From assembly GCA_016212295.1 (NCBI GenBank), contig JACRGO010000237.1, positions 215 through 64,214 on the forward strand: a DNA stretch of 64,000 bases. Reading direction: 5' to 3'. A model generated the notes under the pieces. The model did no database searches and was not told the DNA's origin. It was given only the letters and a program-made list of their open reading frames with translations. This DNA comes from Nitrospinota bacterium (GTDB lineage: Bacteria > Nitrospinota > Nitrospinia > JACRGO01). This document shows positions 11,324-64,000 of the stretch, piece after piece (position 1 is the first letter of the stretch; each line of letters opens with the position of its first letter). Position numbers and translations under genes: made by a program.

Positions 11324-11434
11324 GGATCAGGAAAACCAAGTGGTATCGGCTCGCGCTAATATTTGTCCATAGCGCTGCCATGAAACGTTTTACTTTTTGC
11401 CGCCTTTTTGAAATTTCAATATTTTTGGCTAGGT

Positions 11435-11908
11435 TTAGTATTCCTCGCCCCTTTCCTTGGCTGCGCCCACAGGCTCATGGAATTCTTCCCCGGCCTCTTC
11501 CCCCGCCTCCTCTACTTCCTGGCTGTAGAGGGTCTTTATTTTCGCCTCGTATTCTTCCTGGATTTTTTCCATCTCCTCCTGGAGTTTCAGAACGTCTCCG
11601 TGGAGTCTTTTGCCTTCCGCGAAAATTCCTTTAACGGTATCTTTTCCCATAATGTCTACTGATGGGTCCTGCTCCCTTAATGTGTAGACCTCGTTTCCAA
11701 GCCGCATCATAACCGCGTCCATTTCCTTTTTCATGGAATGGAGTCTTACCTGCATTCTGGCCAATTTGGCCTTCTCCTCCGCCTTCAAGGTGATCATGGA
11801 GGCCAGTGATTTAATTTTCATGTAGCCCTCGTCAAGATTTTTTTGTAGATTTTTCCACATAATACCACCTCCTTTATTCTTTTTGCTTCTTGTAAATAAT
11901 ATAATCAA
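11435..11908 (-). CDS. hypothetical coiled-coil protein
   Basis: 157 aa, charged and helical, with an acidic C-terminus. No recognisable catalytic motif. Confidence 0.4.
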   Translation of the reverse strand: MIILFTRSKKNKGGGIMWKNLQKNLDEGYMKIKSLASMITLKAEEKAKLARMQVRLHSMKKEMDAVMMRLGNEVYTLREQDPSVDIMGKDTVKGIFAEGKRLHGDVLKLQEEMEKIQEEYEAKIKTLYSQEVEEAGEEAGEEFHEPVGAAKERGEEY

Positions 11909-12968: not shown

Positions 12969-13000
12969 CTAAAAATAAAGTACAAGAAGGGTGCCAAAAA

Positions 13001-13208
13001 CTAGCCAAAAATATTTGAAATTTTCAAAAAAGGCGCAATGTTTTTTCACGGCCGGAGATACTTACTCGCCTATTCCTAAAATTTATCTCTAATTTTGTCA
13101 TAAAACGTTTCACTTTTTGCCGCCTTTTTGAAATTTCAAATATTTTTGGCTCATTGCCGAAATGAAATGTGCGAGATAAATTCTCAGAATAGGCGAGTAA
13201 GTATCTAA
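13001..13208. repeat. composite intergenic repeat (mosaic of modules shared with 11383-11430 and 32124-32170)
   Basis: Modules 'ctagccaaaaatatttgaaatt', 'gatacttactcgcctattc' and 'aaacgtttcactttttgccgcctttttgaaatttcaaatatttttggct' recur at 11383-11430 and 32124-32170. The modules also appear as inverted copies within the element. Confidence 0.6.
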
Positions 13209-19726: not shown

Positions 19727-21365
<1,639 letters not shown>

Positions 21366-21378
21366 TTTCTTTATGATA

Positions 21379-24916: not shown

Positions 24917-25187
24917 AATATCTGGGGTATGCACTTAACTTGAGTAGGTGCCATATATTGTGGGTGACGATGAAAAATATCGGACTTTATCCGAACTCTG
25001 ATTTTCATGGGCGTAAAGCGCATTTTAAACCCCTCAAAGCAGCAACTGGTTGTTTTTTTCTGCGAAACCCAAGAATAAAGCATGTAAATTTAAAAAAAAT
25101 TCAATGAAACCTGCGTGGAAGCTTTAGAATAAGAAACACCACATATTGTGTTTACTCAAATCAAGTGCATACCCCAGTTAAATATTT
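24917..25187. mobile_element. MITE-like element with roughly 50-bp imperfect terminal inverted repeats
   Basis: The left arm 'aaatatctggggtatgcacttaacttgagta...' (24917-24968) is the reverse complement of the right arm '...tactcaaatcaagtgcataccccagttaaatattt' (25139-25187) at about 80 % identity. There is no coding capacity. Confidence 0.6.
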
Positions 25188-28128: not shown

Positions 28129-28340
28129 ACCGCCAACAAATCGCTCAACACCGGTGCCCATTACGCTCCGCTTCATTCGCACGGGTTAGCCAATCAGTTA
28201 TTTTCTGCCGCCCACTTTGGGGCTTAAATCTTTTTATTCCAGTTCCGGGGGCTGACGCCCCCGGCTATACGCTTTCGGCCCTCCGGGCCTAAAAAACATG
28301 CTGGAACAGCCTCACTGACTTATGGGTCAATAGGCATTTT

Positions 28341-28768: not shown

Positions 28769-29457
28769 CCGGCAAACCCTCCTTTTTCCCATTTCGTTTT
28801 TGCATTCGTGAAAATATTATTCCCAATTTCAGGGAAAGTCAATAGGAAATTTGCGGTAACACTTTAGCTGTTACTCTCGCTCCCAGTGTCCTCCCTGGGA
28901 GCGTCCGAGCTAAGATGCTTTTCACCTCAACTTTTTAAAAAATTATAATCATAACAATTTGTCTCTGCATTGCAAAATAGTCATGACAATTTGTCATTTG
29001 AATAACAATTTGTTATGATTTTTCCATGAAAAAGAGAGTTTGTGAAAGACATATCATTATGGGACAAAATAGAGTATCTGAATTACGACTCCACCAAGGA
29101 CAGGAAAATCTTTTTGGAGGAAAGATAAGTTTAAAAATTGGAAAAATAAGGTCAAGGGTATATACGATATTTATTTTCACAATAGACTGCATATCGATTC
29201 CGTCCAACTCGTTCTCAATTTGAGAAAAAACCTCCAATACGGGATAGCCAATGCCTTCCCGTTCCCGTTTTTTTAAACTCCCTTTCCTGCTAAACCGGCC
29301 AGGGGCCGGGACCCAAAAGGGCTTCCGCCATGATGCCCATAAAATGTTTTAGCCGCGAAAAAAGGATATCTTGCGAACACAGGGTCTAACAGATGACGCG
29401 GATTGACACGAATTTCCGAACGTAATAATATCAATATCTTGAACGCCAAATTTCACC

Positions 29458-30873: not shown

Positions 30874-30949
30874 CCCCTGCTATCATGTGGAAAGGCTCTC
30901 CAGGCATGACGCCAAGACCTTCGCCCTTGAAAGAAATCTCAATCCATTT

Positions 30950-31942
30950 ATGAAAACGCCGCAACTAAAAATTTTCCACTGCTTTCTTCTGGCTCTTTTA
31001 CTTTTTGCTTGCGCCACTACGTCAGCTCAAAAAGATGCTGCCGTGAAGCCAGACCCGGCAAAGGAACTGTTTCTTGCCGGCAGAACGCTCTTCCAGGAAG
31101 GAAAGCCAAAGGAGGCGCTCGTAAAATTTGAAGAGTCCCTGAAAATTTGCGAAACGGACAGCATCAAGTCCTGCATGGCGGACAATCTCTACCTTATGGG
31201 ATTGTCGCATGCGACTTTGGCGGACCCGGAACAGGCGCCGGCTTTCCTTCAAAGGGCAGAGGGACTATATAAGGAATCGGGAAATGAAGCGGCGCTTGCG
31301 GCGGCGCTGAACGCCTTGGGGAAAATATACGTGGACAGGAATGAGTTTGCCATTGCGCTGCAATATTTCAACCAGTCCCTTGAAATAGACAACAGGATCA
31401 ACAATTCCTCAGGGGCCGCCGGCACATACAATAACATCGGAAAAATATATTACAAGAGAGGGGACTACGCCAAGGCATTGGATTATTATAACAAGGCCCT
31501 GGATTTCTTTGTTTCCACCGGCAATGCCGGCCGCTCCAAGGTGGTCCTGCTCAATATACGCATGGCTGAAAAAGAGATGCTGGAAAGGGAGGGGAATAAA
31601 GAGGCCGGCGCCAAGGAAGGGCCGTCATTGGACAAGGAAGAGTCCGTTGCGAAGCCTCTGGAAGCCGGGCGACAGGAAGATCAAGTTTCAGAAGTTCCAA
31701 CGAACGTGGAAAAAAAAGAAAACATCCAGCACGTTGAAATTACCATCCTCGCCAATTTATTGAATTTATACCAAGCCCCTTCAGCGGGGTCCATGGTAGT
31801 AGCCAGGGTTTTAAAGGGGGGGGCATACAAAACCCTCGATTATGTCCATGATGAAAAGTCAAGAGAATCCTTCTTCAGGATTCAGTTAAAAAACGGCAAG
31901 ACAGGCTGGATCCGCGAGCGGGAAAACAAAGGAGGAAATTAG
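30950..31942 (+). CDS. TPR-repeat lipoprotein with C-terminal SH3b-like domain
   Basis: It has a signal peptide plus lipobox ('LLLFACATTSA'), several TPR units and a C-terminal 'KNGKTGWIRE' SH3b-like segment. Confidence 0.65.
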   Translation: MKTPQLKIFHCFLLALLLFACATTSAQKDAAVKPDPAKELFLAGRTLFQEGKPKEALVKFEESLKICETDSIKSCMADNLYLMGLSHATLADPEQAPAFLQRAEGLYKESGNEAALAAALNALGKIYVDRNEFAIALQYFNQSLEIDNRINNSSGAAGTYNNIGKIYYKRGDYAKALDYYNKALDFFVSTGNAGRSKVVLLNIRMAEKEMLEREGNKEAGAKEGPSLDKEESVAKPLEAGRQEDQVSEVPTNVEKKENIQHVEITILANLLNLYQAPSAGSMVVARVLKGGAYKTLDYVHDEKSRESFFRIQLKNGKTGWIRERENKGGN

Positions 31943-32181
31943 GCGAAGGGCTGAAGGCAAAGGGCTAAGGGCCGATCCACTAATAATTCATATGAACGTT
32001 AATTTTCACACTGTGTTGAAGCAAGGCTAATATTTCCTGGTCCCTGACACCTGTGAACTATTACCAATCCACGATTTCAGAATGTGCAAGAAAAACCGCC
32101 GGCGATATGTGGCATTATAAAACCTAGCCAAAAATATTTGAAATTCTCAGAATAGGCGAGTAAGTATCTAAGGCTTCATGA

Positions 32182-39159: not shown

Positions 39160-40599
39160 ATGAACATCAAAAAACTCACGGACTACAAATGGGAGATCGA
39201 GCAGGACGCGGCCAGGGGAATGCGCGTCCCCGGCATCATTTACGCTGACGATAATCTCATGCGGTTGATAGAGAAGGACAACTCCGCCGGGCAGGTGGCG
39301 AACGGCGCGACCTTGCCGGGAATAGTAAAGGGCTCAATGGCCATGCCGGACATGCACTTCGGTTACGGTCTCCCCATCGGAGGGGTCGTTGCCACGCGCA
39401 TGGAGGACGGCGTCGTGTCGCCCGGCGGCACTGGATACGACATCAATTGCGGTGTCAGGCTCTTGAGGACCAATCTGAATTCGCAAGAGGTGGAAGCCTC
39501 GGCCTTGCTTCTCGCCAATGAACTCTTTCAAAGCATACCAACAGGCGTCGGGTCCAGGGGAGACATACGCCTTTCCGGAAGGGATTACAGAGACGTGCTT
39601 ATTAACGGCGCGAGATGGGCGGTGGAAAGAGGTTACGGCGCGGTCGAGGACATCGGGCATATAGAGGCCCAGGGCCGCATGGAGGGGGCAGACCCCGCCT
39701 CAGTCGGACAAAAGGCAATGGACAGGGGCAAGGACCAGTTGGGCACCCTGGGGTCTGGAAACCATTTCCTGGAAGTGCAGGTGGTGGAGGAAATTTTTTT
39801 TCCAAAGGCGGCGGCCGCCTTTGGACTCTTCCCCGGCCAGGTCACGGTCATGATCCACACCGGCTCCAGGGGATTCGGACACCAGGTCTGCACTGATTAT
39901 TTACAGGAGATGGAGAAGGCCGTCAGGAAGTACGGTATCGAACTCCCGGACCGGCAGCTGGCCTGCGCACCCATCCAATCCCCGGAAGGAAAAAGCTATC
40001 TCTCCGCCATGAGGGCCGCCGCCAATTACGCCTGGGCCAACAGGCAATGCCTGGCCGGACTGACGGAAAGGGCCTTTGAGCGGATTTTACAAATGGGGCC
40101 TGCCGCCCTGGGCATGTCCTGCCTGTACGACGTGGCCCATAATATAGTCAAGATCGAGGAACATATAATCGGCGGAAAAAAGATGAGACTTGCGGTCCAC
40201 CGGAAAGGCGCCACAAGGTCCTTTCCGCCCCATCACCCGGAAGTCCCGGAGTCATGCAAGGAAGTGGGCCAGCCGGTTATCATTCCCGGCGACATGGGAA
40301 GGGCCTCATACGTTCTGGTCGGGACCCAGAAGGCGATGGAGGAAACCTTCGGCAGCACCTGCCACGGCGCCGGGCGCCTCCTGAGCCGGCACGCGGCCAT
40401 CAGGCAGACAAAGGGAAGGGCAATTGAAAGAGAGCTTGGGGACAAGGGCATCATCGTGAGGTCAGCCGGAAGACACACACTGAAGGAAGAGGCCCCTGAA
40501 GCCTACAAAAACGTCACCGAGGTGGTGAACGTCGTGGAAAAGGCCGGGCTCTCCCTCAAGGTCGCGCGGCTGAGGCCGATAATAGTGATAAAGGGATAA
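39160..40599 (+). CDS. rtcB: RNA-splicing ligase RtcB
   Basis: 479 aa with the conserved metal-binding and active-site motifs 'GSGNHFLEVQ', 'HTGSRGFGHQ' and 'CHGAGR'. Confidence 0.9.
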   Translation: MNIKKLTDYKWEIEQDAARGMRVPGIIYADDNLMRLIEKDNSAGQVANGATLPGIVKGSMAMPDMHFGYGLPIGGVVATRMEDGVVSPGGTGYDINCGVRLLRTNLNSQEVEASALLLANELFQSIPTGVGSRGDIRLSGRDYRDVLINGARWAVERGYGAVEDIGHIEAQGRMEGADPASVGQKAMDRGKDQLGTLGSGNHFLEVQVVEEIFFPKAAAAFGLFPGQVTVMIHTGSRGFGHQVCTDYLQEMEKAVRKYGIELPDRQLACAPIQSPEGKSYLSAMRAAANYAWANRQCLAGLTERAFERILQMGPAALGMSCLYDVAHNIVKIEEHIIGGKKMRLAVHRKGATRSFPPHHPEVPESCKEVGQPVIIPGDMGRASYVLVGTQKAMEETFGSTCHGAGRLLSRHAAIRQTKGRAIERELGDKGIIVRSAGRHTLKEEAPEAYKNVTEVVNVVEKAGLSLKVARLRPIIVIKG

Positions 40600-45437: not shown

Positions 45438-46055
45438 ATGTTCGCGCCGCCATTAGGCTTAAAGAATATGAACCGAATTTATCTATCAATATTAATAATA
45501 TGCTTCCTCCTTGGCACGTGTACACTTATAGCATTTGTCAAGGCTGGAGAGTCTATATCTGGGAATTTGTATCCAGAATTAATAGGCTTTTGTTTAGATG
45601 GAATATTCTTTGTAATTCTTTTTACTGTTTATGAGGGGCGAAGATTTAAAGTAGAATCAACAAAACAAAAGATTAAATTAAAGAAGAGTTTGCGAGATTT
45701 ACTCGCAATAATACTGCAATGGTCACAACCTATTAACAGCAAAATTCCTTTTAAAGAGATCATTTTAAATCCCGATAACCTCAAAGCAATTCAAAAGGAA
45801 TTAGAGTCAACAAGACGACTTGATGGAGTGCAGGCAGATTTTCTCAGAATACATGCTTTAGCAAGGATTCCTTCTATCCAAGCCGCAATTCCAGTATCTG
45901 CTACGATTGATGGAAGACATTTACAGTTATGGGACTTAATTTTAAACAATCTTCGGGCAATTGCTGAATCTACTAATGACGAAAATGCTTATGAAGCACT
46001 GTTAGATTTTATTAACTTTGTAATCAAATTTGATGAAGCTCAAGTGTCTGCCTAA
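45438..46055 (+). CDS. hypothetical membrane-anchored protein
   Basis: 205 aa. Two N-terminal TM helices are followed by a helical soluble domain. It is AT-rich and has no family match by eye. Confidence 0.35.
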   Translation: MFAPPLGLKNMNRIYLSILIICFLLGTCTLIAFVKAGESISGNLYPELIGFCLDGIFFVILFTVYEGRRFKVESTKQKIKLKKSLRDLLAIILQWSQPINSKIPFKEIILNPDNLKAIQKELESTRRLDGVQADFLRIHALARIPSIQAAIPVSATIDGRHLQLWDLILNNLRAIAESTNDENAYEALLDFINFVIKFDEAQVSA

Positions 46056-46212
46056 CAAAGAAACAGTTGCAGGAGTCAGACATTGATCTGGAACAAAAAT
46101 GGGCTTGCCTAACAACCGCCTCCACGGCAGACGCTTGACTGTCATGCGCCTTGCAAAGTTCCGCAAGCCTTACGCCAGCCTGCGCTTGTGAGGCGAGCGT
46201 TAGATTTCAAGG

Positions 46213-47067
46213 ATGCCAATGGCTATTCACTGGTCAGAATCCGAAGTCGAGGCAGCAGTTGAAGACTACTTCAACATGCTCCGCCAGGAGTTGACCGGTC
46301 GCAAATACAACAAGACCGAGCATCGCCGGGCATTAATGGAACATCTGAACAATCGGTCAGAAGGTTCGGTTGAACTGAAGCATCAAAATATCAGCGCCGT
46401 TCTGATCGAGATGGGTATTCCATACATTGACGGATACAAGCCACGTTCAAACTACCAGCGCACACTACTGCCCGCAGCGGTGTCTGATTTCCTCGCCAAT
46501 CACCCCGAGTTTCACGCGCTGTTCCAAGAGGACTCCGAGGTCGCGCCATCCATCCCATCGGTTGCGGATTTTCTCGCGGCGATGGAAGCTCCGCCAAGGC
46601 CGGAAAACAAGGGCAGCTCAACGATCGCGGAGACTCAAGCTATCTACAATCCCGCCGGTGTGAACTACCTGGAACGGGAGGCGCAAAATCATTCACTAGG
46701 AGACGCCGGGGAACAATTCGTCATCAATTTTGAGCGGGCCAGGTTAATCCACGCCGGGAAGGAATACCTCGCGGATCAAATTGAGCAAATATCAGTCTCG
46801 GTCGGCCCTTCCGCTGGGTTTGATATCCGGTCGTTTGAAGAAAACGGAACAGACCGCTTTATCGAGGCAAAAACCACGAAATACGGCAAGAGCACGCCAT
46901 TCTTCGTTACTCCCAACGAGTTGGATTTCTCACGGGAGAATGCAACCCGGTACTTTCTATACCGTGTCTTCAAGTTCCGCGCGGAACCACGCTTGTTCAC
47001 TTTGCATGGCTACTTGCAGGATCAGTGCATACTCCAGCCGTCGCAGTACTTGGCGAAGCCAGCGTGA
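46213..47067 (+). CDS. COG3183-N-terminal-domain plus DUF3883 (restriction-endonuclease-like) protein
   Basis: The N-terminus 'EAAVEDYFNMLRQELTGRKYNKTEHRRALMEHLNNRSEGSVELKHQNISAVLIEMGIPYIDGYKPRSNYQ' matches the non-catalytic N-domain of HNH-type predicted restriction enzymes. The C-terminal half 'GDAGEQFVINFE...GFDIRSFEENGTDRFIEAKTT...FFVTPNE...YFLYRVF' fits DUF3883. Confidence 0.55.
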   Translation: MPMAIHWSESEVEAAVEDYFNMLRQELTGRKYNKTEHRRALMEHLNNRSEGSVELKHQNISAVLIEMGIPYIDGYKPRSNYQRTLLPAAVSDFLANHPEFHALFQEDSEVAPSIPSVADFLAAMEAPPRPENKGSSTIAETQAIYNPAGVNYLEREAQNHSLGDAGEQFVINFERARLIHAGKEYLADQIEQISVSVGPSAGFDIRSFEENGTDRFIEAKTTKYGKSTPFFVTPNELDFSRENATRYFLYRVFKFRAEPRLFTLHGYLQDQCILQPSQYLAKPA

Positions 47068-47129
47068 AATCTGGCAATGCGTTGCAACTGGCGTATTGAC
47101 ACGATTTGATCTTTTTTATAACATGAAGG

Positions 47130-47714
47130 CGAAAATATATCCCCCCTGCTTCTTCGGAAGCAGGGCGCGAGGCCGGGGATGCCGATTTCGATACCCTCAT
47201 CGCCTGCGCCTTCAACTATGACGCCCATTCCTCGGAATTCGATAAACTGGGCCGGATTCCGGTGCTCAAGGCCAGGATGAACGCCGACCTGCACATGGCA
47301 GGCGACCTCAAGAACACCGGCAAGGGGAACCTTTTCGTCATCTTCGGAGAGCCGGACATTGACATCCTCGACGCCGGGGACGGGCAGGTGCGGGTGAAGA
47401 TCAACGGCGTGGATGTCTTTCATCCCAACACCGGAGAGATTCGCAGCGACGGCGCGGAGGGGATCGCCTGCTGGTTCATCGACACCGATTATAACGAAGA
47501 GAGCTTCTTTGTCCGCCACGCCTATTTTCTCGGGGCCAACGATCCCTACAAGTCCCTCAAAACCACCCTCAAGGCCGAGATCAACGAAGAAGCCTGGGGT
47601 ACCCTGAACAGCGACACCTCCCGCCCCTTCCGGAAACCAAAATCCGGTCGGATCGCGGTAAAGGTGATCAATCATCTGGGGGATGAGGTGATGAAGGTGT
47701 TTCGTCTGAAATGA
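47130..47714 (+). pseudogene. orphan C-terminal fragment of a DNA methyltransferase (type III Mod / type IIG-like)
   Basis: The frame opens right after an in-frame TGA with no start or N-terminal catalytic domain. The C-terminal 'EAWGTLNSDTSRPFRKPKSGRIAVKVINHLGDEVMKVF' resembles the conserved tail of adenine-specific Mod-type methyltransferases. It is GC-rich, unlike its neighbours. Confidence 0.4.
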
Positions 47715-47744
47715 TAGAATTTTGTATTTTAGAACATTGAAAGA

Positions 47745-49258
47745 GTGTTCACGGGAGTGTCTGCCATGCGCCTGACTATCGAACAGCTCCAAAGCATTAT
47801 GAACTCCACGGAAGGGGAGCATTTCGAATTCAAGGAAGCCAAAACCAAATTTCATTTTGAGAAGCTCCTTAAATATTGTGCTGCTTTAGCGAATGAGGGT
47901 GGTGGGGAAATGGTTCTCGGCGTTACCGACAAACGGCCAAGACATGTGGTTGGAACTCAGGTGTTTTCTCAACCGGAACGGACGAGAAGCGGGCTTATTG
48001 AAAAGCTGCGTTTAAATATCAATTTTGATGAAGTCCAGCATCAAAATGGGCGCGTCCTGATTTTTCACGTTCCCTCTCGCCCCGTCGGAATGCCGATCAA
48101 GGCGGAAGGCGTTTACTGGGAACGAAAAGCCGACAGCTTGGTTCCTATGTCTGAAAATCGGCTTCGTGAAATCTTCTCCGAGGCAGGGCATGACTTTTCA
48201 GCCCAGATATGTTCAGGCGCAACAATAGCTGATTTGATCCCGGCGGCCATTGAAGATTTCCGGAACCGGTGGCTTATCAAGTCAAACAATCCCGGTTTAT
48301 CCACGTTGAGCCATGAACAGCTTCTTTCCGACGCCGAAGCGGTTGTTGATGGTTATCTTACCTATGCCGCGTTGATCTTGTTCGGAACAAAACAAGCTCT
48401 GGGCAAGTGTTTAGCCCAATCCGAGGTGGTTTTTGAATATCGGTCTTCCGATGCCTCAGGTCCAGCCCAGCATCGAGAAGAATTTAGAGAAGGGTTTTTC
48501 AGTTATTATGAAAAATTATGGAAGTTGATTAATTTGCGTAATGATATCCAGCACTTTCAGTCAGGTTTATTCCTGCTGGATATCCCGACTTTTTCGGAAC
48601 GGCCAGTTCGAGAAGCTGTCTTAAACGCCGTCAGCCACCGGGATTATCAGCTCGGAGGCAGCATCTTTATTCGCCAATATCCAAGGAAGTTGGTGTTTGA
48701 GAATCCAGGCGGATTTCCGGTTGGCATAAATCTCGATAATATCCTTGATCGCCAGTCGCCGCGCAATCGCCGCATCGCGGATATTTTTGCAAAATGTGGT
48801 CTTGTGGAGCGTTCCGGTCAAGGCATGAACCTGATGTTTGAGCGAAGCATTCAGGAAAGCAAAGCAATACCTGATTTTTCCGGCACTGATCAGTACCAAG
48901 TGATATTGAAAATCGCCTTCAACCTCGATTACAGACACTAGTGTCAAAAGGCGTCATCGAGCGCTTTGGCCGTGGGCGCGGTGTTAAATACATTCTCAGC
49001 CGTCAATATTATCAGATGGTAGGGAGTAGGGGTGTATATACGAGAAAGAAGGGATTGGATCGTGAAACAAACAAGACCTTACTTTTGAAACATATCGTTG
49101 AAAATTCCGAAACCGGAAGCCGCCTCAAGGAACTGAGACAAGTGCTTCCTTCGTTATCAATGCCACAAGTGCAAACCCTGCTTAGAGAACTTAAATTAGA
49201 AAGAAAAATTCATAAAACTGGAGCTACACGAGCGGCTCTTTGGCATGCCAATCTTTAA
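47745..49258 (+). CDS. Schlafen/AlbA_2-domain ATPase-like protein (COG2865 family) split by a frameshift at 48941
   Basis: ORF 47745..48941 has an N-terminal AlbA_2-like 'EGEHFEFKEAKTKF...' and a HATPase_c_4-like middle. ORF 48941..49258 (GTG start overlapping the TAG) carries 'GVIERFGRGRGVKYIL' and a wHTH, which normally forms the C-terminus of the same polypeptide. Confidence 0.6.
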
Positions 49259-49384
49259 TAAATCTATTGCATCAGCAAAAAAATCTAATTGCAATCCAAA
49301 TGCAATATAATACCCCAAGGTCTTTAATTACAAATAGTTAATATATATCGCTATTTAATTTGATATATAAAATTATGCAATAAA

Positions 49385-51457
49385 ATGGAATTTCGAATAG
49401 CCGATACCTTTACCGACAGCCTTTCCAAACTTAACGGAGAGGAACAGAAGGCCGTCAAGACCACCGCCTTCGACCTCCAGATGAATCCAGCCAATCCGGG
49501 GATGCAGTTTCATAAACTGGACAGGGCCAAGGACGCCAATTTCTGGTCAGTCCGTGTGAGCCGGGACATCCGATTAATTGTCCACAAAACAAAATCCAGC
49601 CTCCTGCTCTGCTATGTCGGGCACCATGATGACGCCTATCACTGGGCCGAACGGCGAAAACTGGAAACGCACCCGAAGACCGGCGCCGCGCAGATGGTTG
49701 AAGTTAGGGAGACCATAAAAGAAATCACCATCCCCAAATATGTTGAGGTTGAGCAACCCGTACCTTCCAAGCCCTCCCTGTTTTCGGATGTGTCCGACAA
49801 TGAACTCCTGAATTACGGTGTGCCGTCCGAGTGGTTGAACGATGTGCGGAAAGCCAATGAGGACAGCCTATTGGAACTGGCCGGCCACTTGCCAGGCGAG
49901 GCAGCCGAGGCGTTGCTCAATCTGGCCACCGGGGTGACGCCGCAAATCGCACAGCCGGGTTCCACTGAAGTTGATCCCTTTGACCATCCCGACGCCAAGC
50001 GGCGGTTCCGGGTGATGAACAATGTCGAGGAACTTGAACGTGCCCTGGAATATCCCTGGGAGAAATGGACTGTCTTTCTTCACGCCGCGCAACAGGAGTA
50101 TATAGAACAGGATTACACCGGCCCGGCAAGGATTTCCGGTTCCGCTGGCACTGGCAAGACTATTGTGGCCCTCCATCGAGCGGTTTTTCTTGTCCGTTCC
50201 AACCCTGAAGCCAGGGTGTTGCTCACCACATTCTCCGATACCTTGGCGAATGCACTGAGAACAAAATTGAGACGCCTGATCTGCAACGAACCGAGTCTGG
50301 GCGAACGTCTGGAAGTTTACGCCATGAATCAAATTGGCCTCAGACTCTATGAACTGAATTCTGGACGTCCACGGATCGCATCCCGAAAAGATATCAAGCA
50401 ATTTCTTGAAGAAGCCTCCATTCAAATAGAAGGACACAAGTTTACCCTGCATTTCCTGATGACGGAGTGGGAGGAGGTTGTTGACGCATGGCGGTTGGAA
50501 ACCTGGAAGGCGTACCGCGATGTTACGCGACTGGGAAGAAAAACGCGTCTGCCGGAGAAACAACGTGCCATGCTCTGGTCTATTTTTGAACGTGTGAGGT
50601 CCAATCTGAAGACCCGGAATCTTGTAACATACTCCGCCTTGTTCAGTCGTCTGACGTCTCAACTGGGTAAAAGCAAGCACCCGCCTTTTGATTTCGTCGT
50701 TGTGGACGAGGCACAAGATGTTAGTGTGGCTCAATTGCGGTTTCTGGCTGCCCTTGGGGCCAGACGAAAGGACAGCCTTTTTTTTACCGGAGACCTTGGG
50801 CAGAGGATTTTCCAGCAACCCTTCTCCTGGAAGGAACTTGGCATTGATATTCGCTGGCGTTCCCGCACACTGAGAATTAATTACCGCACCTCACACCAGA
50901 TCAGAATACAGGCTGATCGGTTGTTGGGACCTGAGTTGTCCGACGTGGACGGCAATGCAGAAGAACGGCGCGGTACAATTTCTGTTTTCAACGGGCAAAA
51001 TCCAACTATTATGATTTTAGATAGTCAGAAAGAAGAAATTAAAATGGCCGGCAAATGGATATCGGACCGTATAGGGGAAGGCTTAGCGCCAAGCGAGATA
51101 GGCGTTTTTGTCCGTTCCGAAGCGGAACTGGACAGGGCGCGGACCGCTGTTAAAAAAACGGGCTTGCCCTATAAGGTTCTCGACGAGAAGGTCGAAACAA
51201 CCGCCGGAAATATTTCCATCAGTACCATGCACCTTGCCAAGGGCCTGGAGTTCCGCGCCGTTGCTGTGATGGCCTGTGATGATGAGGTTCTTCCCTTGCA
51301 AGAAAGAATCGAATCCGTAGCGGATGATTCCGACCTGGAAGAGGTTTACAACACGGAACGTCATTTGCTTTACGTAGCCTGTACCCGGGCACGGGACTAT
51401 CTTCTTGTAACAAGTGTTGATCCGGCATCGGAATTCATTGATGATTTGAAGATGTGA
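49385..51457 (+). CDS. UvrD/Rep-like SF1 helicase with N-terminal RelE/ParE-like domain
   Basis: 690 aa. The N-terminal roughly 90 aa 'FWSVRVSRDIRLIVHKTKSSLLLCYVGHHDDAYHWAE' fits the RelE/ParE toxin-fold consensus. The rest has Walker A 'GSAGTGKT', a DEAQD box 'VVVDEAQDV' and C-terminal UvrD motifs 'ISTMHLAKGLEFRAVAVM...VACTRARDYL'. Confidence 0.7.
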   Translation: MEFRIADTFTDSLSKLNGEEQKAVKTTAFDLQMNPANPGMQFHKLDRAKDANFWSVRVSRDIRLIVHKTKSSLLLCYVGHHDDAYHWAERRKLETHPKTGAAQMVEVRETIKEITIPKYVEVEQPVPSKPSLFSDVSDNELLNYGVPSEWLNDVRKANEDSLLELAGHLPGEAAEALLNLATGVTPQIAQPGSTEVDPFDHPDAKRRFRVMNNVEELERALEYPWEKWTVFLHAAQQEYIEQDYTGPARISGSAGTGKTIVALHRAVFLVRSNPEARVLLTTFSDTLANALRTKLRRLICNEPSLGERLEVYAMNQIGLRLYELNSGRPRIASRKDIKQFLEEASIQIEGHKFTLHFLMTEWEEVVDAWRLETWKAYRDVTRLGRKTRLPEKQRAMLWSIFERVRSNLKTRNLVTYSALFSRLTSQLGKSKHPPFDFVVVDEAQDVSVAQLRFLAALGARRKDSLFFTGDLGQRIFQQPFSWKELGIDIRWRSRTLRINYRTSHQIRIQADRLLGPELSDVDGNAEERRGTISVFNGQNPTIMILDSQKEEIKMAGKWISDRIGEGLAPSEIGVFVRSEAELDRARTAVKKTGLPYKVLDEKVETTAGNISISTMHLAKGLEFRAVAVMACDDEVLPLQERIESVADDSDLEEVYNTERHLLYVACTRARDYLLVTSVDPASEFIDDLKM

Positions 51458-61713: not shown

Positions 61714-62628
61714 TCAATTGGACTGGCGGACGCGGATTTTCGATAGCGTCATTTCCGTTCCCTGTGTGCTTGTTGAGACCGGAATCTTCAAGTCCTTCAA
61801 AATCAGATCAAATTCCGACGTCAATTTGGACTGGTCCGCCGTGGACCGGTATTCCACTTCGGCCGCGGTCGGCGTTTGCTTGAGCTGGCGATGGGAGACA
61901 TAGCCTTCCACTTTGGAAAAGGAGTCCAAAACATCCTCAAGCTCTCCGGTCTCAAATTTTTTAAAGGTGAGCGTGTAGATGCGCCCGCTCTCCTCTAATT
62001 TACTCCTGTTTTTTCCGCCCTTATCCATGAATCCCGGCGCCTGGCCTCCGCCTCCCCCGCCTCCGACATGGGCCTTGATTTGCAAGCCGAGCTCTTTCGC
62101 GGCCTGGGCCGCCACGTCCTTGGCCGATTCCCCTGCGGCATCCATGATCTGGGGTTTCTGAAATGGGGCGCGCACCGTAACCGGCACCTCGGTGGTCACG
62201 TCCACCTTTCCAATGGTCCTGGCGGATTTATCGACAAAAAACGCCTCCAAAAAAATTTGCGCCCTTACTTTTTTGAATCCCCCTGTATCTTCCAGCCACG
62301 GGGTAACCTGAAAGATGACGGCGATGTCGCAATGGGCCGCCTGCGCGATTCCCGCCAGCTCCGCTTTGTTTCTGGCCCCTTCCGTGTAAGTGTCTTTCAC
62401 GGCCACAACTTCGTCCTTCACTTCAAAATCAAAATCCTGGATAAGGATGTCGGTGATCTCCGTCAGCGTCTGCTGGAATGTCCTGCTTTCGCGGGAAAGG
62501 GACTCCGGAAATTCCTTTTGCCCGAAAAACATCATGACAGGCTTGTCATACGCGAAAGAGGGCATGGGCGCGGCAAATAAAACAGCCGAAAAAATGGACA
62601 AAAACAAAACCATGATTTTTGTTCTCAT
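61714..62628 (-). CDS. secreted hypothetical protein with Gly-rich linker
   Basis: The likely start is MRTKIMVLFLSIFSAVLFAAPMPSFA (signal peptide). It has a 'GGGGGGQAPG' linker and overlaps the downstream lipoprotein gene by 4 nt. Confidence 0.45.
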   Translation of the reverse strand: MRTKIMVLFLSIFSAVLFAAPMPSFAYDKPVMMFFGQKEFPESLSRESRTFQQTLTEITDILIQDFDFEVKDEVVAVKDTYTEGARNKAELAGIAQAAHCDIAVIFQVTPWLEDTGGFKKVRAQIFLEAFFVDKSARTIGKVDVTTEVPVTVRAPFQKPQIMDAAGESAKDVAAQAAKELGLQIKAHVGGGGGGGQAPGFMDKGGKNRSKLEESGRIYTLTFKKFETGELEDVLDSFSKVEGYVSHRQLKQTPTAAEVEYRSTADQSKLTSEFDLILKDLKIPVSTSTQGTEMTLSKIRVRQSN

Positions 62629-62838: not shown

Positions 62839-63130
62839 AAAAATTGTAATAGTTCAGCCCTGTCTAATCCACCTGTCTGTGTGCGGACACGCACAGGCAG
62901 GAATGAGCTGTTATACTGGTTTTTAATAACTCCGCCATTTATGGCGGAGAAACGAAAACAACTACCCGGCTTTAGCCATGACTTTACTGCCCGCGCTTCG
63001 TGCGCCAGAGCGCGTCGCGCGCTGACAGGCAAATATAGTCAGGGCTAAAGCCCTACTTAGTTTGTTCACAGGCTCCAGCCTGAAGGCTGGAGTTAATAAC
63101 TGTCCATAAGGGTGAACTATTACAAAAATT
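62839..63130. mobile_element. MITE-like structured element with 12-19-bp terminal inverted repeats (TGTAATAGTTCA)
   Basis: The left arm 'aaaaattgtaatagttca' (62839-62856) is the reverse complement of the right arm 'tgaactattacaaaaattttt' (63113-63130). The interior is a chain of hairpins. There is no coding capacity. Confidence 0.55.
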
Positions 63131-63185: not shown

Positions 63186-64000
63186 CTATTGGTCCTTCTT
63201 TTTTTGGCGTTTTTGGTGGTCTTTAAGTTGCCCGTTTTTTTGGGTTATATAATTTTTCTTGTCCTGGGATAGGGGGGCGGAGGCAAGCCAGGATTCCAAT
63301 GATTCAAAGGACCAGCCTGAAAAGAAATCCTCCTTGAGCGCGGCCTCCAGTTTTTGTCCCGCCTCTTTGACGTCTCGTCCCAGGGCGGCAAGGGCTACGC
63401 ATTGCAGATACAGGGCAATGGCCCGGTCTTTTCTTTCCCCGGCTATTTTCAGAGTTTTGGGAATAATGGCCAGGGCATTTTCATATTGATTCTGAATGAT
63501 ATAAAACTCGGTAAGGTTGTTGTAAGGCTTGGCGTCTTCCGGATGGAGTTCAATGGCCTTGTAAAAGTCCTGTATGGCCTTGTCATACTCCTTGAGATAT
63601 CTATAGGCGCTGCTCGTGTAGTCGCGAGCCGAGGCGTCTTTCGGATCGAGTTCAATGGCCTTGTCAAAGTCCCGTATGGCCTTGTCATACTCCTTGAGAT
63701 CGATATAGGCGTCTCCTCTGTTGCTGTAAGCCGAGGTGTCTTTCGGATTGAGTTTAATGGCCTCGCCATAGTCCCGTATGGCCTTGTCATACTCCTTGGA
63801 CAAGCGATAGGCATTTCCTCTGTTGTTGTAAACCGAGGCGTACTTTGGATCGAGTTCAATGGCCTTATCATAGTCCCGTATGGCCTTGTAGTACTCCGTG
63901 AGATTGCTATAGACGCTTCCTCTGTTGTTGTAAGCCGAGGCGTATTTTGGATCGAGTTCAATAGCTTTGCCGTAGTCCCGTATGGCCTCGTCATACCTCT
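63186..64000 (-). CDS. TPR-repeat protein (partial, continues beyond the window end) built from near-identical 102-bp tandem repeats
   Basis: 'YDKAIRDYGEAIKLNPKDTSAYSNRGDAYIDLKE' units repeat at least five times. The same frame stays open to position 64000. The overlapping ORF 63449..63994 in another frame is repeat-driven and spurious. Confidence 0.65.
   Translation of the reverse strand, partial: RYDEAIRDYGKAIELDPKYASAYNNRGSVYSNLTEYYKAIRDYDKAIELDPKYASVYNNRGNAYRLSKEYDKAIRDYGEAIKLNPKDTSAYSNRGDAYIDLKEYDKAIRDFDKAIELDPKDASARDYTSSAYRYLKEYDKAIQDFYKAIELHPEDAKPYNNLTEFYIIQNQYENALAIIPKTLKIAGERKDRAIALYLQCVALAALGRDVKEAGQKLEAALKEDFFSGWSFESLESWLASAPLSQDKKNYITQKNGQLKDHQKRQKKKDQ

Follow-up and report, generated by a model that had tools for sequence, protein, structure and literature searches.

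A hairpin-rich intergenic element of a Nitrospinota genome, very probably a MITE derived from or mobilised by an ISBst12-group insertion sequence of the IS66 family

The mechanism by which insertion sequences of the IS66 family transpose is still poorly known. The inverted repeats of this family begin with GTAAGCG and are accompanied by direct repeats of 8 bp (PMC11946415). For ISDge4, a member of the single-ORF ISBst12 group, the ends GTGACTACTCAGCA and GTAACTGCTCAGCA and an 8-bp direct repeat have been reported (PMC12898284). The element analysed here has in common with this group (ISBst12, ISDge4 and ISGka4-like elements, with a single-ORF DDE transposase) the 5'-GTAA start, a repeat of the form GTAAnnnTTCAGCC and an 8-bp duplication. 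Members of the group are approximately 1.5-1.6 kb long and carry a transposase, whereas the present element measures 278 bp and carries none. It is very probably a non-autonomous MITE, derived from or mobilised by a single-ORF insertion sequence of the ISBst12 group of the IS66 family. A literature search returned no description of MITEs derived from IS66.

The element was found in the window, that is, the whole stretch of 64,000 nucleotides that was analysed, which is ordinary chromosome of a Nitrospinae MAG with genes for ATP synthase, anthranilate synthase, aspartokinase and RtcB. Pfam scans of the ORFs of at least 150 aa across these 64 kb detected no domain of a reverse transcriptase, a transposase or a recombinase. 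Two genes of the - strand border the 556-nt spacer that contains the element. Upstream is a TPR gene with its stop codon at 63186-63188, which runs past the end of the window, the source contig continuing for at most 1.7 kb beyond. Downstream, at 61714-62628, is the gene of a secreted protein of 304 aa and unknown family, with a GGAGG ribosome-binding site ahead of it, and this gene stands at the head of a run of genes for signal-peptide proteins and weakly CsgG-like lipoproteins.

The MITE proper occupies positions 62846-63123, as delimited by comparison of its termini with those of 31 related elements. It opens on the + strand with the left terminal inverted repeat GTAATAGTTCA-GC (62846-62858), of which the 11-mer is common to all 32 members of the family, and closes on the - strand with the right terminal inverted repeat (63111-63123), the reverse complement of GTAATAGTTCA-CC, recognised both as a repeat and by family comparison. 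The non-coding, hairpin-rich interior lies between them (62859-63110). Directly outside, the target-site duplication AAAAATT is present on the left (62839-62845) and on the right (63124-63130), with 7 of 7 positions identical. Read in the 8-bp register of the family, the two flanks agree at 6 of 8 positions (TAAAAATT versus AAAAATTT), and the duplication, which is 7/7 or 6/8 and not a clean 8 bp, falls within a run of A/T, in which a match arises more easily by chance. Taken by pairing, the inverted repeat is perfect over 13 nt, TTGTAATAGTTCA (62844-62856) and TGAACTATTACAA (63113-63125), and reaches 16 nt if one mismatch is allowed. This pattern has no other exact occurrence in the 64-kb window, and its number of near matches there was equalled by none of 100 shuffles.

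The interior contains hairpins H1 (62872-62901), H2 (62930-62949), the composite H3 (62968-63052) and H4 (63073-63092). The RNA of the + strand folds at -134.4 kcal/mol, compared with -89.2 ± 5.0 kcal/mol for dinucleotide shuffles (z = -9.0), and that of the - strand at -124.6 kcal/mol (z = -6.4). The inverted repeat and the fold z-scores together place the observation well beyond chance. The preliminary description of a hairpin-rich element of about 290 bp with inverted termini is therefore confirmed by the perfect 13-nt repeat and the fold, its chain of stem-loops between the termini corresponds to the four hairpins, and the interval assigned to it, 62839-63130, is exactly the element with both copies of the duplication. 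Its perfect termini also stand, while their extension to about 19 bp does not, given that the outer bases are the duplicated target AAAAATT and lie outside the element.

The longest stop-to-stop frame of the element is 79 aa, and a phmmer search of this frame against 1.84 billion representatives gave no genuine homologue and one spurious low-complexity match; ARAGORN reported no tRNA or tmRNA. Neither blastn within the 64-kb window nor searches with translated ORFs found a second copy of the interior, blastn of the element against phage and plasmid collections gave no match, and the interior shows no similarity to that of any other member of the family. With terminal inverted repeats, a flanking duplication, a small size and no coding capacity, the window element has features by which a MITE is recognised. 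Occurrence of the same element at different sites is seen for sub-families and for solo ends, the interior of the window element itself being single within 64 kb of its source genome. Speculatively, the hairpins might affect termination or processing of a read-through transcript.

In public genomes and metagenomes, 31 further elements of 233-291 bp have the same 11-nt termini, GTAATAGTTCA...TGAACTATTAC. A scan of GTDB, with one genome per species and both 12-nt termini, gave two of them, one in an uncultured Desulfobacterales MAG (L002) and the other in Ca. Scalindua rubra (L003). The exact 12+12 termini were found neither in viral contigs, with gap ranges of 179-389, nor in JGI metagenomes, the pattern being without metagenome matches because its outer T/A belongs to the flank and not to the element. 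When the outermost base was dropped on each side, the JGI metagenomes gave the other 29 loci, which shows GTAATAGTTCA to be the real terminus and the outer T/A of the window element to be flanking DNA. The size of the family, approximately 230-290 bp, is within the range searched, and a literature search for the 12-mer terminus returned irrelevant primer matches only. Of 52 ends compared, 48 have S (G or C) at position 12 of the terminus and 47 have C at position 13, with no conservation beyond; the comparison shows that the true terminus consists of the 11-mer GTAATAGTTCA plus these two positions, S and C. The family occurs in at least three phyla (Nitrospinota, Desulfobacterota and Planctomycetota), and its hosts include anoxic and groundwater lineages of several phyla.

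The flanks of these elements carry the trace of insertion. When the 8 bases outside each end were compared for the 32 elements, 8 pairs agreed at 8/8, 11 at 7/8 and 3 at 6/8, the chance of a match of at least 7/8 being approximately 4e-4 per element. The perfect duplications are TATGGGGC, AAATGTTG (L025), AGGGATAG (L026), CTTTTTTT, AAAAATAC, TAATTATC, CATATTTT and GAAGGGAA (L039), and that of the Desulfobacterales element matches at 7/8 (ATGTTGGT versus ATTTTGGT). The interiors fall into 17 clusters, mostly unrelated, and those of the window element, L002 and L003 are mutually unrelated. Three elements (L017, L025 and L032) have the same interior, approximately 87% identical, at different sites and with different duplications. 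Mosaic sub-families with common sub-terminal segments are formed by L020, L024, L026, L030, L039 and L042, and by L003, L029 and L043, and solo termini, which are decayed copies, are present in L018, L023 and L030. After excision of the element and of one copy of the duplication, the restored site is outside any ORF in 29 of 32 cases, which means that the insertions are intergenic.

Strong folding is a property of nearly the whole family, given that 25 of 26 representatives fold far below their shuffles, with z from -4.9 to -29.6 and a median of -6.9. The better-folding strand differs from member to member among these 26, and this inconsistent preference indicates that the richness in hairpins is the DNA-level self-complementarity usual for MITEs and not a structure specific to RNA. 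The sole exception to strong folding, L038, is probably a chance match, one of the few expected, because it is without a duplication and is atypical at positions 12-13. At the other extreme, L041 (2152-2415) is an almost perfect palindrome of 264 bp (-233 kcal/mol, z about -30) whose flanks prolong the palindrome (GTGGATGCCGGC...GCCGGCATCCAC), which may reflect a head-to-head duplication instead of a simple insertion.

The very stable fold of the window element (z = -9), and the two G-U pairs of H1 that become A-C mismatches on the opposite strand, would also suit an independent structured ncRNA gene or a cis-regulatory RNA closed by a conserved stem. This is very unlikely, given that the interiors are unrelated among members, so that there is no conserved structure to covary, that the orientation to neighbouring genes varies and the folding advantage changes strand from one member to another, and that no conserved promoter or terminator flanks the elements. 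In the element region, Rfam 15 returned nothing beyond chance-level matches at either the gathering threshold or a limit of E = 10, and thus no RNA family. The asymmetric ends (TTCAGC versus TTCACC) and the strand bias of 7 kcal/mol had been considered as a hint of RNA and were dropped, as either combination of ends occurs among the 26 representatives and neither strand is consistently favoured.

Short perfect repeats around approximately 250 bp, upstream of an operon for a secreted protein and CsgG-like lipoproteins, can likewise be read as an inverton, a promoter segment whose flipping by a site-specific recombinase would turn the surface-protein operon downstream of it on or off; in L002 and L003, moreover, a gene starts 16-26 nt from the repeat. 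The flanks make this highly improbable, since the 8-bp direct duplications outside the repeats are a scar of transposition that invertons do not have. Furthermore, no recombinase is encoded by the ORFs of at least 150 aa in the window or lies in the loci examined, no promoter-like site was found within the window element, identical interiors stand at unrelated sites, and the neighbours are unrelated housekeeping genes, a LivK-type ABC transporter operon at L002 and, at L003, AcrB with an unknown membrane protein after it.

A retron msr-msd, in which the terminal repeats would be a1/a2, the hairpins the msr and msd stems and msDNA the product of a nearby reverse transcriptase, shares with the window element the inverted repeats enclosing several stem-loops, a superficial likeness to which the slightly better fold of the + strand may be added, but it can be dismissed as extremely improbable: no ORF of at least 150 aa in the 64-kb window has a reverse-transcriptase domain, the neighbours (TPR protein and secreted 304-aa protein) are unrelated genes of the - strand, the + strand downstream is taken by the opposite-strand TPR gene up to and past the end of the window with at most 1.7 kb of contig left, Rfam 15, which covers only some retron RNAs, has no match even at E = 10, and the same termini recur in a dispersed family of 31 elements with transposon-type target-site duplications, no neighbouring genes in common and an inconsistent strand preference in folding. 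The preliminary description had seen no reverse transcriptase adjacent on either side, which holds for all ORFs of this length in the window, and had proposed the Rfam scan for retron ncRNA that gave no match. Its preference for a MITE over a retron is borne out by the family with shared termini, the 8-bp duplications, the absence of coding capacity and the intergenic sites.

Ends and duplications of autonomous elements were checked on plasmid copies annotated with an IS66-family transposase. The copy on pHTA426 has the ends GTATCTATTCAGCCC and GTAACTATTCAGCCC and the duplication GACGAGTT, that on a Ca. Chlorohelix plasmid the ends GTAACAATTCAGCC and GTAACAGTTCAGAC and the duplication AATTATTT, and that of Paraburkholderia caribensis has GTAACTATTCAGCG at both ends and the duplication GCCGCCGC, while ISDge4 on pDGEO01 has the published ends and the duplication GAAGAAAA. 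A perfect 8-bp duplication was accordingly verified on four autonomous copies of the ISBst12 group. The left end of the window element, GTAATAGTTCAGCC, is identical to the ends of these four copies at 10-12 of 14 positions, with 12/14 for both GTAACAGTTCAGAC and GTAACAATTCAGCC of Chlorohelix and 11/14 for GTAACTATTCAGCC of pHTA426, and the variant of the right end in ...TTCACC is also found in a Geobacillus copy (GTAACTATTCACCC). Both ends of the window element start with GTAA and the duplication is 8 bp family-wide, as in IS66 and the ISBst12 group. The type of terminus and the length of the duplication place the family with the ISBst12 group of IS66, which, on the strength of these sequences, would be the parent family. 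An origin from a Mu/Tn7/IS21/IS3-type element, for which TGT...ACA ends and a 5-bp duplication had been assumed, was dropped given the GTAA terminus and the 8-bp duplication. Positions 5-7 of the repeat are TAG in the window element versus CTA, CAG, CAA or CTG in the autonomous elements inspected, and the search for an autonomous element bounded by exactly GTAATAGTTCA gave none.

Five IS66 transposases used as tblastn queries matched neither the window nor the 366 kb of loci retrieved, which suggests that an ISBst12-type transposase would mobilise these elements in trans. By analogy with the IS66 family, the 13-bp terminal repeats GTAATAGTTCASC would be bound by a DDE transposase whose gene lies elsewhere in the genome, the element would be inserted at a staggered cut, and repair would duplicate approximately 8 bp of the target. 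The target here would have been the A/T-rich AAAAATT in the spacer between the TPR gene and the operon of the secreted protein and CsgG-like lipoproteins.

The only other exact copy of the 11-mer in the window is a solo terminus, TGAACTATTAC, at 32054-32064 on the - strand, where approximately 0.03 would be expected by chance according to our estimate. A degenerate left end, CTAATAATTCA, is present at 31990, and the flanks CGATCCA and CAATCCA match at 6 of 7 positions. Tentatively, positions 31990-32064 may be a remnant of approximately 75 bp of a second, decayed insertion, downstream of a TPR/SH3 gene at 30887-31942.

Several other features of the window were recorded. A second, unrelated family of short repeats with the motifs AGCCAAAAATATTTGAAATTYTCA and TTCTCAGAATAGGCGAGTAAGTATCT is found at 11376-11436, 12996-13208 and 32119-32171, three intergenic regions in which the motifs occur both as direct and as inverted copies, with nested inverted repeats at 13003-13206 and one copy approximately 60 nt away from the solo MITE terminus (32054). 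Imperfect inverted repeats are present in intergenic DNA at 24919-25180 (44-nt arms, 174 nt apart) and 2564-2714 (67-nt arms, 17 nt apart), a GGTCATT-rich palindrome lies upstream of the ATP synthase delta subunit gene (21275-21367), and a palindrome of 37+37 nt is intergenic at 28947-29020; the MITE terminus is absent from all four. The sole Rfam match in the whole window is a full-length Acido-Lenti-1 RNA (RF01687) at 28245-28290 on the + strand, with 49.3 bits against a gathering threshold of 37 and E = 3.9e-8. The RtcB RNA ligase gene (39160-40599, Pfam E = 3e-172) adjoins HEAT-repeat and DnaJ genes. A cluster of defence-like appearance at 45438-51457 contains genes for a NOV_C-domain protein (46213-47067), a protein with Schlafen AlbA_2 and HATPase_c_4 domains (47745-48941) and a UvrD-type helicase (49385-51457).

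Orthologous loci were compared for three of the elements. Those of the window (L004-L007) and of L003 (L008-L011) are without the element, but no clean empty site can be read from them because of divergence or rearrangement. Between L002 and its counterpart L012, similarity stops 14 nt from the terminus by blastn and 1 nt from it by local alignment, and the match in the far flank is not significant. A clean empty site is missing for all three because the nearest orthologous loci differ in their upstream genes. At L003 (MAYW01000033, region 1-1400) the MITE, at 529-795, is followed by an unrelated gene with an Asp/Gly-rich low-complexity stretch, and this gene and the MITE are only approximately 0.5 kb from the apparent end of the contig. 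A membrane-fusion-protein gene overlaps that of AcrB in three other Scalinduaceae genomes. Synteny with other Scalinduaceae is lost in S. rubra within the last AcrB codons, approximately 135 nt upstream of the element, and the MITE stands in place of the usual overlapping gene. There may be a repeat-mediated rearrangement breakpoint near the MITE, which this arrangement fits but does not prove.

As an insertion of a MITE, the window element belongs to a commonplace class of mobile DNA. Annotation of the locus should give the MITE and its target-site duplication and should not name a retron, RNA gene or regulatory switch. Beyond this locus, a previously unlabelled MITE family that crosses phyla is delineated by its termini GTAATAGTTCASC and its 8-bp duplications and is tied to the ISBst12 group. 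The family could mark the activity of ISBst12-type transposases and the breakpoints of rearrangements, for example the synteny break in Ca. Scalindua rubra. That its 13-bp terminus is constant over at least three phyla around interiors that are unrelated and always strongly hairpin-forming invites a reading as more than junk. Elements might be built repeatedly de novo around ISBst12-type ends, or the fold-back interior might be selected, for example as a single-stranded intermediate of transposition or as a movable module, set between genes, for termination or RNA processing. We consider this unlikely; if true, de novo assembly or a selected interior would be a new aspect of the biology of the IS66 family.

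Among described systems, the bacterial MITEs, such as Correia/NEMIS, ERIC, MITEPsy1 and the Tn3-derived TIMEs, are likewise small, non-coding and intergenic, have terminal repeats and a duplication, fold back on themselves and depend on a transposase acting in trans (PMC3189936 for MITEPsy1). The window element differs from them in the family of its transposase and in the length of the duplication, which is 8 bp, compared with the TA of Correia and the 4 bp of MITEPsy1. Unlike those MITEs, the members of the present family have only the 13-bp terminus in common, with interiors that vary from one sub-family to another across at least three phyla.
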